NCBI GenBank assembly: GCA_964581125.1
Contig: CAZONQ010000002.1
Span: 1,147-65,146 of the forward strand
Source of the DNA: an uncultured Ornithinimicrobium sp.
Lineage (GTDB): Bacteria > Actinomycetota > Actinomycetes > Actinomycetales > Dermatophilaceae
Reading direction: 5' to 3'
Length of the DNA: 64,000 nucleotides
Both the position numbers and the translations under genes were made by a program. How positions within the stretch are numbered: position 1 is the stretch's first letter; each line of letters starts with the position of its first letter. The notes beneath the pieces are model-generated. The model saw nothing but the letters and a program-made list of their open reading frames with translations. It was not told where the DNA came from and made no database searches. Shown here piece by piece: positions 6,305 to 42,477 of the stretch.

Positions 6305-7279
6305 GTGAGCGACGACCGAGCCCCGCGCGCCCCGCGCAGCGCCCTGCGCCGCTCCCGCGACGGCTGGCTCGACCACCTGCGGGTCGAGCGCGGCCGCTCC
6401 GAGCACACGCTGCGCGCCTACCGCCGGGACACCGACCGCTACCTGCGCTACCTCGAGGGCCGCGGCGTGCGGGCCCCCGAGGACGTCCGCGAGCGCCACG
6501 TCACCGACTTCCTCGCGCACCTGCGAGCCGGCGACGAGGAGCACCGGCCCCTGGCCGCGACGTCGGCGGCCCGCGCGGTCGTGGCGGTCCGGGGCCTGCA
6601 CCGCTTCCTCGCGGTCGAGGGCGAGGTCAGCGACGACCCGGCCCAGGAGGTCCAGCCGCCGACACCTCCACGGCGACTGCCGAAGGCGCTCCCGGTCGAC
6701 CAGGTCGAGCGGCTGCTGCAGGCCGCCTCGCTCGGGGACACCCCCGCCGCGCTGCGCGACCGGGCGCTGCTCGAGGTGCTCTACGGCTGCGGCGCCCGCG
6801 TCTCCGAGGCGGTCGCGCTCGACCTCGACGACCTCGAGCTCGGCCGCGCCGACGACGGCGGCGGGGGAGTGGTGCGCCTCTTCGGCAAGGGCCGCAAGGA
6901 GCGGATCGTCCCGATGGGCCGCTACGCCCGCGACGCGCTGGACGCGTGGATCGTCCGGGGCCGGCCCGGGATGGCCGCCGCAGGACGCGGCACGCCCGCG
7001 GTCTTCGTCAACGCCCGCGGGGGGCGGCTGTCCCGCCAGTCCGCGTGGAGCGCGATCAAGAGCGCGGCGGAGCGGGCCGCACTCCAGGGCGACGTCTCAC
7101 CCCATACCCTCCGGCACTCCTTCGCGACCCACCTGCTGGACGGCGGCGCGGACGTGCGCGTCGTCCAGGAGCTCCTCGGCCACGCGTCGGTGACGACCAC
7201 GCAGATCTACACGCACGTGTCCACCCAGCACCTGCGCGAGGTCTACGCCCAGGCCCACCCCCGGGCCCGCGCCCGGTGA
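6305..7279 (+). CDS. xerD: Site-specific tyrosine recombinase XerD
   Basis: [66 protein letters not shown]; usual position upstream of parA-scpAB. Confidence 0.95.
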
Positions 7280-37294: not shown

Positions 37295-38401
37295 TCATCC
37301 TCCGGGATGTATCTGGCGGACCGTCCCGGGGCCGAGGACGGGCGAGGTGACGAAGATCTCGCCGCGGTGGGTGACCGCGACCCCGCCCGGCAGCATGAGC
37401 TCTCCGGCGCCCAGCTCGGTGCGCGTCCCGTCGGGGGCCAGCCGGACGAGCGAGCCCTCCGGGCTGCGTCCCAGCTGCAGGCCGATCCAGCCCTCCTTGG
37501 TCAGCTCCAGGACGTAGAGGGACCCGTCAGGGCCGGCCTCGAGGTCCACCACCGAGGTGAAGCCGTCGGCCACGAGGCGGCAGTCACCCTCCTGCGGCCG
37601 CTCGGGGTCGCAGACGGCGTCGACCGAGCCGGGCTCGACCCGCCAGACCTGCGAGGTCCCCGGCTCCGCGGGGAAGCCGCGCAGCTCACCGACGTACCAG
37701 GTGCCGTCGGACCCGACGGTGACGGCGGTCGGCACGGCCTCGGACAGGACCGCCGTCCCGGCGGGCGGCACGGTCAGGGGGTGGCCGAGCGGGTCCGTCA
37801 CGACGGGCGGCAGTCCGTCCGGCACCGTCACCTCGCGCGGCCTGAGGCGGGCGGCCGTGACGATCTGCCCGTCGGGGGAGACGCGGAGCAGGTCGTTGCC
37901 GGCCGCGTCCACGACCAGTGCTCCGCCGCCCGGGAGCGCGGCGACGCCGAACGGGTTCGACTCCTCGGGGGTCAGCTCGACGTTCCACGGGTCGGGGTCG
38001 AGGTGCTGGTATGCCGTGATGTCGGCCAGCGGGACGGCGCCCCGGCCCGGGTTCCACCGGTAGAGCGTGCCGGCGCCCGTCCCGGGCGGACCGCCCGCCG
38101 TGAGCAGGTAGGTCTGCCCGCGTCCGGTCATCGAGACCGCGGACGCGATGTAGGTCGCGGGCAGCTGGGCCAGCGTGGACAGCCTCCCGGCGTGGTGCCC
38201 CCGCCGCGTCAGCTCGTCGACCGAGCCGTCCGCCTGGGTGACGACCAGACGCCCTCCGGGGCCCGCTTCCAGGCCTCTCGGACCGGACAGACCGGTGACG
38301 ACCGGGCCCACCTCCCCGGCGCCGTGACCCGCAGCCGTCGTGACCAGGCCGCACAGCGCGGCCACCAGCACGGCAGCCACCTTCCTCGTGGGTGCCCGCA
38401 T
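37295..38401 (-). CDS. ScyD/ScyE family secreted beta-propeller protein
   Basis: Signal peptide; GLSGPRGL, ESNPFGV, DAAGNDLL, AVPTAV, YVGELRGFP. Confidence 0.88.
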   Translation of the reverse strand: MRAPTRKVAAVLVAALCGLVTTAAGHGAGEVGPVVTGLSGPRGLEAGPGGRLVVTQADGSVDELTRRGHHAGRLSTLAQLPATYIASAVSMTGRGQTYLLTAGGPPGTGAGTLYRWNPGRGAVPLADITAYQHLDPDPWNVELTPEESNPFGVAALPGGGALVVDAAGNDLLRVSPDGQIVTAARLRPREVTVPDGLPPVVTDPLGHPLTVPPAGTAVLSEAVPTAVTVGSDGTWYVGELRGFPAEPGTSQVWRVEPGSVDAVCDPERPQEGDCRLVADGFTSVVDLEAGPDGSLYVLELTKEGWIGLQLGRSPEGSLVRLAPDGTRTELGAGELMLPGGVAVTHRGEIFVTSPVLGPGTVRQIHPGG

Positions 38402-38749
38402 GATCGTCTCCCTGCCTCTCGTCGGTGGGCACGAGTGTTCCCGCGGGGCCTTTCAGCGGTCTGTCAGCGCACGGTCGGCCTCGGGGTACGGTGCGGGCAG
38501 GTGACAGGGCGGGAGGGGGCGGACGTCGGGGAGAGCGGCACCCGGGCGGACGGCATACCGGAGCCGATCAGGTATGACGTGCACCTGCGGGACCGTGTCG
38601 CCGGGACCGATGGCTCACACCGGCGACCCAGCGGCCTCAGCGCGAGTGCCGGAGGCCGGACGTGCCCTCGGGCGAGGAGAGCGGAGCGCCCCGCCTCGGA
38701 GGGGTGAGGCAGTCGGGGCAGCGGCCTCTCCAGGTCAGGAACCAGGACA

Positions 38750-38777
38750 AGTTGACATAATGTGACTTATCGGCGTT
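38750..38777 (-). other. dif: dif site (XerCD chromosome dimer resolution site)
   Basis: Minus strand reads AACGCCGATAA-GTCACA-TTATGTCAACT: 11-6-11 layout with the XerD arm TTATGT(C/T)AA and an actinobacterial-type XerC arm CGCCGATAA; AT-rich and intergenic; gene orientation broadly converges on this region. Confidence 0.9.
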
Positions 38778-39444
38778 ACGCCGGCACCAGCTCCAGGACG
38801 GCCCCGAGGTCCTCGACGTGCGCGTTGTGACCGAGGCCCGCGAGGGTCACCGGTGCGTCCACCAGCGCCGCCAGCTCCTCGTGGGACACCATCGTGTCGT
38901 GCTCGCCGCGCGCCAGGACCACAGGACAACCGGCGTGCGCGACGAGCTGCCGCATGTCGAACGCACCCACGTCGAACGTCCTCGGGTCCTGCGCCAGCCT
39001 CCAGCCGCCGCCCGCCAGCTGCTGGATCCCTGCCTCCACGACCGGGTCGTCGGCGGTGACGAGCCCGCCCAGTCCGGAGACCTTCAGGAAACGCTCGGTG
39101 GCTTCCTCAAGCGTCGGCACGACCTTGGGCGGCCGACGCGCCAGCCCGGCGACGCGCTCCAGCTCCTCCGCCGACCACCGGACCTTGACGCCCAGACCGA
39201 CGACGCTGCGCACGCGGGCCGGAGCCATCGCCGCCAGGACCAGCGCGACCACGCCGCCCATCGAGTGCCCGACGACGTCCACCGGGTCCTCGGGCAGCTG
39301 GTCCAGGACCGCCCGCGCGTGCCGTTCGTACGTGTAGGGCGGGTCCCAGGCTGCCGAACCGTGGCCCGGCAGGTCCGGCGCGAGCCCAGCAGCCCGCCAG
39401 ACCTCTCCCACCCCTCCCAGCCCGTGCAGGAGCAAGGTTGACAT
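38776..39444 (-). CDS. Alpha/beta fold hydrolase bracketed by dif and a dif-like site
   Basis: LLHGLGG, PDLPGHG.A, GHSMGG, GHNAHVE; AGGGAG RBS 7 nt before ATG 39444. Confidence 0.88.
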   Translation of the reverse strand: MSTLLLHGLGGVGEVWRAAGLAPDLPGHGSAAWDPPYTYERHARAVLDQLPEDPVDVVGHSMGGVVALVLAAMAPARVRSVVGLGVKVRWSAEELERVAGLARRPPKVVPTLEEATERFLKVSGLGGLVTADDPVVEAGIQQLAGGGWRLAQDPRTFDVGAFDMRQLVAHAGCPVVLARGEHDTMVSHEELAALVDAPVTLAGLGHNAHVEDLGAVLELVPA

Positions 39445-39463
39445 AACGTGACTCCCTGCTGAC
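39436..39463 (-). other. Partial dif-like site (XerD arm plus spacer, degenerate XerC arm)
   Basis: GTTGACATAA-CGTGAC-T (39437-39453) matches dif GTTGACATAA-TGTGAC-T (38751-38767) at 16/17 in direct orientation. Confidence 0.75.
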
Positions 39464-39502
39464 GTCGTCGTTCTAGCCGTGATCCTAGACAACACCGGGC
39501 GC

Positions 39503-40066
39503 TCAGCGCCTGGTCCCGTACCTCGTCAGGACCACACCGCCGGGAAACGTCCGGGTCTCCAGCAGGTCGAGCTGCACGCGGCCGTCCAGCGCCGTGAAGA
39601 ACGGCGTGCCGCCTCCCACCAGGACCGGCGCGGTCGCCAGGACGAGCTCGTCGACCAGCCCGGCGCGCATCGCCGCGCCGGCCAGCGTCGCGCCGCCGAT
39701 GTCCATGTCGCCGCCGTCCTCGGCCTTGAGCCTCCTGATCTCGGCGACGGCGTCGCCTGCCACCAGCCGGGTGTTCCAGTCGACGGTGCCGACCGTCGAG
39801 GAGAACACCACCTTGGGCATCGCCCTCCAGCGGCGGGCGTACTCCGCCTCGGCCGGGGTTACCCCGGGCTGCCGGTCGACGGTCGGCCAGTGCGAGCTCA
39901 TCGTCTCCCACAACCGTCGGCCGTAGAGCGAGAGCTCGGTCGCGGCCACCCGGTCGGACCACCACCCGAAGAGCTCGTCGCTCGGCACGCTCCAGCCCAG
40001 GTCGTCCCCCGGCGCGGCGACATAGCCGTCGAGGCTCACGTTCATGCCGTAGACCAGTCTGCGCAC
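39503..40066 (-). CDS. Dihydrofolate reductase/RibD C-terminal family protein
   Basis: MNVSLDGYV, LYGRRLWE, PKVVFS, GGATLA, GLVDE, PVLVGGG. Confidence 0.92.
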   Translation of the reverse strand: MRRLVYGMNVSLDGYVAAPGDDLGWSVPSDELFGWWSDRVAATELSLYGRRLWETMSSHWPTVDRQPGVTPAEAEYARRWRAMPKVVFSSTVGTVDWNTRLVAGDAVAEIRRLKAEDGGDMDIGGATLAGAAMRAGLVDELVLATAPVLVGGGTPFFTALDGRVQLDLLETRTFPGGVVLTRYGTRR

Positions 40067-40205
40067 GGCACCAGCCTCCTCGTGGACCCGACCCCGGTCA
40101 ACAGGACCGCCAGGCCCGGTCGTGAGGGGTCAGGCAGCTCCACCTGGCTCCCGGTCCGGCCCCGGATGATCGGGGTCACCGACCAGGCCCGGTCGTTCCC
40201 GAGCG

Positions 40206-41306
40206 TCAGGTCTGCTGCACGTCCAGTCCCAGCATCCGCGCCAGGCTGCGCAGCTCGCGCTGCACGCCCTCGCGCCGCGTGCGGCTGAACGGCTCGTCCT
40301 CGTGCACCGCGTGCACGACCAGGCGCCCGGCGCGGTGGTCGGCGGTGGCGTCCACCTTGCCCACCAGGCGGTCGCCGTCCAGCACCGGCAGCGCGAAGTA
40401 GCCCCAGCGACGCTTCGCCGCCGGCTTGTACATCTCCAGCGCGTAGTCGAACTCGAACAGCTCCACCATCCGCTTGCGGTCGAAGAGGAGCCGGTCCAGC
40501 GGCGAGACGAGGGCCACCCGCCCCCTCCACGGCAGGTCGAGGTATGAGGTGTCCACCCGCCACGTGCCCCGCACCCCCTCGACGACGGCCTCCTCCCCCG
40601 CCGCCCCGACGTCCTGGGCCTCGACGGGGCACTGCGGACCCTTGGCGCGGGCGATCCCGAGCGCCGCCAGCCGCCTGCGGTCCCGCTCCACCCTCGCCTG
40701 CGCCGCCGGCACGGCCTCCACGTCGGGATGGACCCGCTCCGCCAGGTCCCAGCAGCGCTCCCCGCCCTCGCGGCTGGCCACCGCGACGTCGCCGGCGGCC
40801 TCCATGAGGTCGAGCATGAGGACGACGTTCTTGCCCTCGTTCCACCCGCTGGAGCGCCAGGGCACCTGCGTGGTGTCCGGCAGCGCGCGGGCCGGCAGCG
40901 GACCGTCGGCCCGCAGCCGCTCCAGGATGTCCCGGCGGCAGCCCCGGTTGGCCTCGAGCCACCGCTCGTTGGCCTCGCGCCACGCCGGCGCCCCCGGCTC
41001 GGCGCCCGGCCACGCGGCCATGTCGGCGGCGTAGAGCGCCACGTCCTCGGCGGGACGCAGGAAACCGCGCACCTCGACCAGGCGTCCGTCGCCGACGAGC
41101 CGGTCCAGGTCCTGGGGGTGGTATGCCGTGCCCAGCCGGCTCCAGCACACCAGGTCGGCGTTGGTCGCCACGCGGTCGGTCAGGTCCACCTGGACGCAGC
41201 TGAGGTGGCGCAGGGTCTCGAGCAGGTCGGTCGGCCGCGGCGACGCCAGCAGCTGGGCGCGCACGGCCACCCGCCGCGCGTCGCGACGGCTGAGCTCCAG
41301 CGTCAC
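40206..41306 (-). CDS. YcaQ/AlkZ (HTH_42) DNA crosslink repair glycosylase
   Basis: VQVD (QxD) motif, WSRLG..Y, LVSPLDRL, EMYKPAAKRRWGYFALPVL.GDRLVGKVD. Confidence 0.9.
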   Translation of the reverse strand: MTLELSRRDARRVAVRAQLLASPRPTDLLETLRHLSCVQVDLTDRVATNADLVCWSRLGTAYHPQDLDRLVGDGRLVEVRGFLRPAEDVALYAADMAAWPGAEPGAPAWREANERWLEANRGCRRDILERLRADGPLPARALPDTTQVPWRSSGWNEGKNVVLMLDLMEAAGDVAVASREGGERCWDLAERVHPDVEAVPAAQARVERDRRRLAALGIARAKGPQCPVEAQDVGAAGEEAVVEGVRGTWRVDTSYLDLPWRGRVALVSPLDRLLFDRKRMVELFEFDYALEMYKPAAKRRWGYFALPVLDGDRLVGKVDATADHRAGRLVVHAVHEDEPFSRTRREGVQRELRSLARMLGLDVQQT

Positions 41307-41992: not shown

Positions 41993-42108
41993 CTCGCCTC
42001 CGCCTACCGAGTATGCCGTGTCCACACCCCCCACGTCCTGCCCGTCCCCGTCCACAGGACGGGTCCTGTCCGTGGCGCAGCGCCGCCCCGGTGCGCAGGA
42101 TGACGGTC

Positions 42109-42477
42109 ATGAACGCACGAGGGGCGCAGAGGAGCGGGCCGGTCGAGGGGCCGGTCAACGAGGTCCGGCTCGTCGGCCGGGTGAGCGGGGAGCCGACCGT
42201 CCGGCAGATGCCGAGCGGCGACGAGCTGGTGCAGTTCCGCCTGGTCGTGCCGCGTGCGCCGGGACGCGGCGGCGGCCGCGAGACCCGGACCGTGGTCGAC
42301 ACGATCGACGTCGCCTGCTGGTCGAGCCGGGTCCGGCGCACCGCGGTCCGGCTCCCGGACGGCCAGGGCGTCGAGGTGCACGGCAGCCTGCACCGGCGCT
42401 TCTTCGCCGCGGCGGGCGGGCGGGCGTCGCGCTACGAGGTGGAGGCCGGCACGCTGCGCCGGGTGGAGCTGCCGTGA
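42109..42477 (+). CDS. Single-stranded DNA-binding protein paralogue (SsbB-like)
   Basis: NEVRLVGRVS, PSGDELV.FRLVV.R, VDTIDVACW, VEV.G.L.RRF; no acidic tail. Confidence 0.85.
   Translation: MNARGAQRSGPVEGPVNEVRLVGRVSGEPTVRQMPSGDELVQFRLVVPRAPGRGGGRETRTVVDTIDVACWSSRVRRTAVRLPDGQGVEVHGSLHRRFFAAAGGRASRYEVEAGTLRRVELP

Follow-up and report, generated by a model that had tools for sequence, protein, structure and literature searches.

The DNA analysed here, a window of 64,000 nucleotides from an uncultured Ornithinimicrobium sp. (assembly G000, 74% GC, 3.25 Mb), carries at 39436-39446 an isolated copy of the XerD half of the chromosomal dif, which on balance is probably a candidate selected XerD-only docking site, resembling the XDS of Bacillus subtilis and lying within a horizontally gained gene at a dif-side hotspot of gene turnover. 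XerD alone would dock on this lone arm without recombination, and the docked protein would help to remove SMC, the complex that folds the chromosome, from the final stretch ahead of dif. The features concerned are the following.

38750 to 38777, minus strand: chromosomal dif (XerC arm 38777-38767, spacer 38766-38761, XerD arm 38760-38750)
38776 to 39444, minus strand: accessory alpha/beta-hydrolase gene, 222 aa, Abhydrolase_6/1, with its ATG in the lone arm and its stop overlapping dif
39436 to 39446, minus strand: lone XerD arm, 10/11 against the dif arm, holding the hydrolase ATG and the codons M-S-T
39447 to 39452, minus strand: spacer-like hexamer, 5/6 against the dif spacer, with CG at its end and 1-nt insertions in related strains
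39453 to 39463, minus strand: expected position of the XerC arm, 3/11, unrelated in G359 and substituted in strains; no XerC arm
39452 to 39457, minus strand: likely ribosome-binding site AGGGAG, 7 nt before the ATG, assigned from sequence
6362 to 7267, plus strand: host xerD gene (TIGR02225 above cut-off), 31 kb from dif and inside the window
37295 to 38401, minus strand: a further feature on the other side of dif
39503 to 40066, minus strand: RibD_C-domain gene, an accessory neighbour that is skipped in a related contig which retains the hydrolase

The sequence at 38750-38777 is an ordinary chromosomal dif. A complete dif had been recognized here in the preliminary description, and it proves to be the sole full site of the 3.25-Mb assembly. 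It is taken as the chromosomal site because the same site is present in 57 of 60 genomes of the genus, lies near the middle of the record (at 0.48-0.57 of it in 11 of 14 single-contig genus genomes) and is the point at which GGGNAGGG octamers switch strand (116:42 vs 48:102) and converge. An ordinary dif with converging GGGNAGGG octamers is likewise what the accessible portions of PMC2673442 and PMC2680272 describe for Escherichia coli and its KOPS-guided FtsK, although accessory XerD arms are not part of the E. coli site described in those portions. The GC skew of the window gives no terminus signal. The host possesses xerD, a xerC-like gene, and smc. In a related strain (three runs), the outer base of the dif XerD arm (38750) is altered, which makes that arm equal to the second one in 11/11 positions.

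The second site spans 39436-39463, 686 bp from dif and in direct orientation, as originally reported. It matches dif at 10 of 11 positions of the XerD arm, 5 of 6 of the spacer, and 3 of 11 of the XerC arm (18/28 in total). The identity of 16/17 first given for arm plus spacer holds when the compared segment is moved by one base and falls to 15/17 in strict register, and the "degenerate" XerC arm was an overstatement, since 3/11 is the level of the unrelated flanks at other lone arms (mostly 2-4/11 across 51 perfect arms of the g56 and G533 loci described below). What is present is the XerD half of dif only, with the XerC arm absent and not degenerate. In the place where that arm would lie stands the AGGGAG noticed earlier, at 39457-39452. 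Among the matches listed from related strains, 1-nt insertions behind 39451, in two contigs from a single run, and a base change at 39459 break the 11-6-11 register, and the spacer of the lone arm in G359 matches its own dif at 3 of 6 positions. The terminal CG of the spacer-like hexamer is common to all 14 genus lone arms that lie in lnt or close to dif. Within the assembly, the first 10 bases of the arm are found at two places only, dif and the second site, and 9-mers of the same composition have a mean of 0.09 copies.

The interval between the two sites is filled by the hydrolase gene, an accessory one, carried by 4 of the 60 genomes of the genus and by none of 300 others in the order. The tight arrangement proposed at the outset is borne out in its particulars, namely that no other gene lies in the interval, that the arm supplies the start codon (M-S-T, the same in G359), that the TAA overlaps the outer two bases of the dif XerC arm, and that A/T-ending codons are in excess (GC3 0.90, a value in the bottom 3.7% of 1036 crudely called genes, with 0.98 as the genome median). 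Residues S61, D183, H206, and H209 are invariant, and a catalytic triad Ser61-Asp183-His206 is predicted. The gene adjoins dif on the XerC side and on the same strand in 4 of 4 genus carriers; the 5' end is visible in three of them, and the genes of G000 and G359 start in the arm while that of G325 lies beside dif without one. The dif-side hydrolases form one clade (100/99) with the two arm-bearing genes on both sides of its deepest split, and the arm is therefore probably as old as the arrival of the gene. TT preceding the ATG occurs at 1 of 1036 starts and TCA as second codon at 2 of 1036 (crudely called genes), and both are kept between G000 and G359 despite a protein identity of 70%.

The closest named homologues of the hydrolase are labelled Ornithinimicrobium. 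Homologues in Nocardioides start M-L-L-L-H or M-R-L-L, with a TGA/ATG overlap, behind a uvrA-like gene. Within 160 further homologue loci dif was found only beside a duplicate, G008, and in 0 of the 159 others, a DNA context that excludes homologues P0002-P0006, P0008, and P0010 and the separate M-S-T clade P0016, P0033, and P0075. M-S-T and M-S-S starts are present in other hydrolase clades (M-S-S without the TT). A metagenome scan for close homologues returned only relatives of at most 65% identity, none with dif, and the gene has no match in 72,556 plasmids, 50,697 phages, and 120 dif-bearing viral loci. Scanning 38400-40300 for sigma-70 promoters and terminators gave no match, and RNA runs contained next to nothing of this DNA. 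The C-terminus of homologue P0003 reads E-R-R-stop, and since this ending is readable from the dif XerC arm in another frame, it suggests that P0003 may also abut dif. A palindrome with an XerD-like arm and no XerC arm lies 5.5 kb from a Nocardioides homologue (L043, 6420-6460).

The dif side is a hotspot of gene turnover. Genes flanking dif on both sides differ among almost all 57 genus genomes, related contigs that skip the RibD_C and ScyE neighbours show no dif-like ends there, and an unrelated gene in G331 and G352 also has its stop codon on the outer bases of dif. The ScyD/ScyE gene (37317-38481) is cleanly absent from contigs of three studies, with 3 other bases instead. An ssb-like gene (42013-42477 of the window; L199, L200, L336, and L337) is a frequent neighbour of dif across the family, standing beside it in 18 of 61 genus loci and in other genera too. 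The resemblance between the right flank of dif and the hydrolase 5' end was considered as a relic of a tandem copy and rejected, with a rank of 3 among 56 flanks and 12% of random sequences scoring equally.

Lone XerD arms recur near dif in the genus. The sequence GTTATGTCAA has 26 matches in 60 genus genomes, 13 of them within 25.5 kb of dif against 0.4 expected, a distance chosen post hoc, after the data had been seen. These 13 sites belong to 12 of 57 genus genomes, and the other 45 have zero exact lone arms within that distance. Near dif, none of 2520 9-mers of the same composition is more frequent than that of the arm, which stands first and occurs within 2.5 kb of dif in 6 of 57 genomes, the runner-up in 3. 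The sites fall into five independent groups (post-hoc binomial about 2e-6).

Group 1: at the hydrolase start, in G000 and G359
Group 2: in G004, at -422 from dif, with a doubtful 90-codon ORF
Group 3: in G358, at -493 from dif, between convergent genes
Group 4: at the ATG of a lipoprotein-like gene in G339 and G340, inverted and on dif's XerD side
Group 5: inside lnt, in 7 genomes at 14-25 kb from dif, and in G339 on another contig

The leader of the lipoprotein-like gene of G339 has 18 of 18 bases in common with the hydrolase leader of G000. In lnt (L179, 14579-16129, and its orthologues), the arm lies in the R-Y-V-K codons CGT TAT GTC AAG, which are identical in 8 of 8 genomes, with four-fold sites there 0.50 identical and near-saturated. 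Of 18 invariant Arg columns, this one alone has an invariant CGT, and the codons used are uncommon (CGT 12% of Arg, TAT 33% of Tyr). The codons TAT GTC AA are conserved also in three small contigs not placed in the chromosome, which speaks against the docking reading, and lnt orthologues beyond that clade have no arm. Recombination of the lnt site with dif would remove core genes. A GGGGAGGG octamer is found about 11 bases upstream of the lnt arm. In 151 genomes searched from the family's remaining genera, the arm was met at the opening codons of an ssb-like gene (G462, G490, G412, and G458), within a continuous uvrA-like gene (G446), and at -263 from dif in G481, in each case as a direct copy on the XerC side.

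Within 2.5 kb of dif there are no perfect lone XerC cores, the rate of one-mismatch cores equals background, and one-mismatch XerD arms show no excess, so that no decay series is seen. Lone arms vary as the XerD arms of true dif sites do, with the same TC/TA/AC variants. They favour CG ahead of the arm, a position at which the dif of the genus has CA, and CG spacers are present in true dif sites of other actinobacteria. A class-wide search gave 49 matches. Of the 30 fetched, 4 proved to be clear dif sites having a CG spacer, 2 lie near dif (G000 and G134), and the remainder have no dif within 1.5 kb. An order-wide 11-mer search was noisy in low-GC genomes, and the matches listed were read by eye.

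A conserved array of such arms is found in g56, a genus of another family (f10) of the same order, which was reached via the class-wide search. All 19 fetched loci contain 1-4 perfect extra arms at 235-477 bp from dif, and all 50 arms within 1.9 kb have the direct orientation and lie on the XerC side, with 0 in the other three configurations. The arms are 33-63 bp apart, or about 100 bp between pairs, and the array is non-coding, located between a DUF4193 gene and dif in fast-diverging DNA, with the arm nearest dif usually preceded by GGGACR. The cluster is present in 32 of 32 genomes, comprising the 19 fetched loci and 13 others, 6 identified by a pattern including dif and 7 by coordinates only. 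Tight arm pairs occur in 4 of 391 order genomes, 2 of which are g56 and 2 of which have no dif within 1.5 kb. The paired arms L358 and L359 (family f8) are without dif within 1.5 kb, and the L359 pair is a 47-bp tandem duplication. In a third family, G533 has one lone arm at -418 from dif. Since the g56 arrays bound no genes, they do not represent cassette ends. As loci distinct from the one at 39436-39446, the g56 array and the lnt site demonstrate that the class exists without thereby establishing that this copy belongs to it. The fixed non-coding array of g56 is a clean deletion target for the question of SMC release and FtsK steering.

The putative binder of the lone arm is XerD, given that the motif is its arm, that the TC/TA/AC variants of true arms are tolerated in it too, and that it is concentrated at dif. 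The hydrolase would have been gained horizontally and would have settled in the turnover hotspot beside dif, its start carrying the arm because M-S-T can be spelt as the arm at zero protein cost. SMC unloading may be the role of the docking site, and this takes up about half of the confidence placed in docking itself; a reservoir of XerD for dif or an FtsK buffer are the alternative roles. One orientation is common to all 10 verified independent groups, 9 of them on the XerC side as direct copies and 1 on the XerD side as an inverted copy, and FtsK heading to dif would reach every verified lone arm from the spacer side. In the accessible part of PMC2673442, E. coli FtsK has to come from the XerD side to activate XerD, a rule which, combined with the spacer-side approach, would keep the lone arms from recombining with dif. 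An unverified pair in G558, among the matches listed, would lie on the XerD side in direct orientation. Read as its reverse complement, the motif has stops in two frames, and the orientation of arms within genes is therefore partly forced by gene strand; by crude calls, gene strands are not biased that way on the XerC side (162:213) and are so biased on the XerD side (307:153).

The XDS of Karaboja et al. (2021) are reportedly XerC-independent half-sites that have the XerD arm without the XerC arm, a composition that the present site, with 3/11 in the XerC position, would share. In the accessible text of the papers on B. subtilis, XDS are dif-like terminus sites at which XerD unloads SMC (PMC11840125, PMC11894783, PMC10945525, PMC8242196). 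Here too a dif-like sequence lies in the terminus apart from dif, in a host with XerD and Smc. In contrast to XDS as that text presents them, the arms here lie 0.2-25 kb from dif in one orientation relative to it with the XerC side favoured, are tightly arrayed in one genus, and lie within codons and start sites. At the level of sequence the lone arm would work like an XDS, with XerD binding and SMC unloading predicted. The element is patchy and not universal, being found in 12 of 57 genus genomes, missing from the hydrolase of G325, and paired in 4 of 391 order genomes, and the 45 of 57 genus genomes without an exact arm are the main weakness of the docking reading.

For the copy at 39436-39446, a fossil of gene capture is a real rival, because the arm stops exactly at the start of the conserved protein and probably dates back to the arrival of the gene, and we consider it unlikely but well worth weighing. 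An ancestor would have integrated a dif-bearing circle with the hydrolase, the left site would have lost its XerC arm and so locked the gene in, and the XerD arm would survive only as the spelling of a start codon. Capture would also fit the coincidence of the arm end with the start of the conserved hydrolase sequence and of the gene end with dif, and it gains from the constant side and strand of the gene in 4 of 4 genus carriers, the single dif-side clade (100/99), the 5/6 spacer, and one related contig that is homologous exactly from 38755 to 39449. The Nocardioides starts differ, which makes M-S-T an addition that matches the arm exactly. However, TT and TCA are unneeded for coding M-S-T and both are kept, M-S-T and M-S-S starts occur in other clades (M-S-S without TT), and the G359 spacer agrees with its own dif at only 3/6. 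Random erosion should equally have left lone XerC arms and part-decayed arms, for which there is no excess, and the lnt, ssb-like gene, and g56 sites are left unexplained. Docking site and capture fossil are not mutually exclusive. An active, integrase-free single-gene cassette, excisable by XerCD as a 686-bp circle and with exchangeable cargo, was the interpretation initially offered; together with another binding protein and with chance it is less likely than either a docking site or a capture fossil, and in our judgement very improbable. The direct repeat with a gene fitted tightly between sites, the patchy cargo with its lower GC3, the highly variable genes beside dif, and the unrelated G339 gene that starts at the same arm with 18/18 leader bases in common would all suit it. 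Yet the gene of G339/G340 is inverted and lies on the opposite side of dif, hence in a different slot, neighbouring genes come and go without dif-like ends, the strain insertions behind 39451 break the register, and stops on the outer bases of dif are seen in other genes as well (G331 and G352). Different genes with the same junction in the slot were predicted, and none occur among 57 dif loci, where direct arms are limited to G000/G359 (the same gene), G358, and G004 with its doubtful ORF. Neither a 686-bp circle nor an empty site is among the joints listed for contigs of 8 runs from 7 studies, one of them possibly the source (15 of 23 joints listed in one contig set and 2 of 2 in the other, with no excision or circle joint), contigs being a source that drops rare forms, and there is no match in the plasmid, phage, and viral collections searched. 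The same lone arm within the lnt, ssb-like, and uvrA-like genes and in non-coding arrays cannot be a cassette junction there.

Comparison with known mobile systems bears on the same point. According to the accessible text of PMC5357621, the divergent sites of TLC phage, the gonococcal genetic island (GGI), and EludIMEX-1 have lost the XerD arm, whereas the XerC arm and the central region are retained. The locus here resembles IMEX (TLC, GGI, EludIMEX-1, CTX, VGJ) as that text presents them in having accessory DNA at dif bounded by a direct dif-like copy; it differs in that its site retains the XerD arm without an XerC arm and has spacer insertions in strains, and in that the interval holds the hydrolase only, with no replication or Xer-activation genes. 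Neither a circle nor an empty site was seen among the joints listed, in contigs that drop rare forms. The claim of a recombining cassette end captured by XerCD is not sustained. From the geometry of the sites, the arm missing from the second site would be the one that dif integration would have taken from the chromosome. Acinetobacter pdif modules, in the accessible portion of PMC6449649, are bounded by complete 28-bp sites, inverted, and mostly on plasmids; one gene between two Xer-type sequences is the common feature, whereas the present locus has one half-site, direct and chromosomal. The site lacks the feature by which the sites of TLC/GGI-type elements and of pdif modules are defined, and a dif with a direct XerD arm is insufficient to call an Xer-integrated element. 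Another protein, either a transcription factor or a terminus-organising protein, might share the XerD-arm sequence and repress the hydrolase here, which would accord with motifs overlapping translation starts in three gene families and with CG before lone arms vs CA in the genus dif. This is also quite improbable: the tolerated variants are exactly those of true XerD arms, CG spacers exist in true dif sites of other actinobacteria, and the motif lies mid-gene and in dif-tied non-coding arrays as well. Chance resemblance of the AT-rich start of a foreign gene to the arm seems more improbable still. ATG TCA AC is a legal start, A/T codons are commoner in foreign genes, and most genus genomes have no such site; against this, the arm match is unique in 3.25 Mb and kept at 70% protein identity, the arm 9-mer is first of 2520 controls, and five independent events near dif have arisen in the genus (post-hoc binomial about 2e-6).

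A broader extension of the docking reading, which we regard as speculative and rather doubtful, is that lone XerD arms are a polar accessory element of dif in Actinobacteria that loads XerD as a one-way gate for FtsK and SMC. Up to four arms in a row on the XerC side, even in start codons and core genes, would then form a gate that sets the side from which dimer resolution is activated, and XerD would also throttle genes whose start codon the arm covers, as with the hydrolase here. No report of lone XerD arms in Actinobacteria was found in the open literature, subscription papers and bioRxiv supplements being beyond that scope. SMC release and FtsK steering at the terminus of Actinobacteria are assumed from Bacillus, and the account in PMC11898615 cites Bacillus work only in its accessible part.

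Complete extra dif-like sites were also encountered, with AT-rich spacers and mostly on small contigs (L204, L205, and L206, of which two are on G445:C3 and one on G445:C1). Others are L175 (G332:C40), L176 (G013:C2), and L177 and L178 (G018), and two of the extra sites are identical and lie on one 64-kb contig, separated by 45 kb. They are possibly plasmid-type dif sites or modules. A second full dif-like site, inverted and degenerate, lies about 2 kb from dif in L207 (G445:C1, 1557000-1573000).
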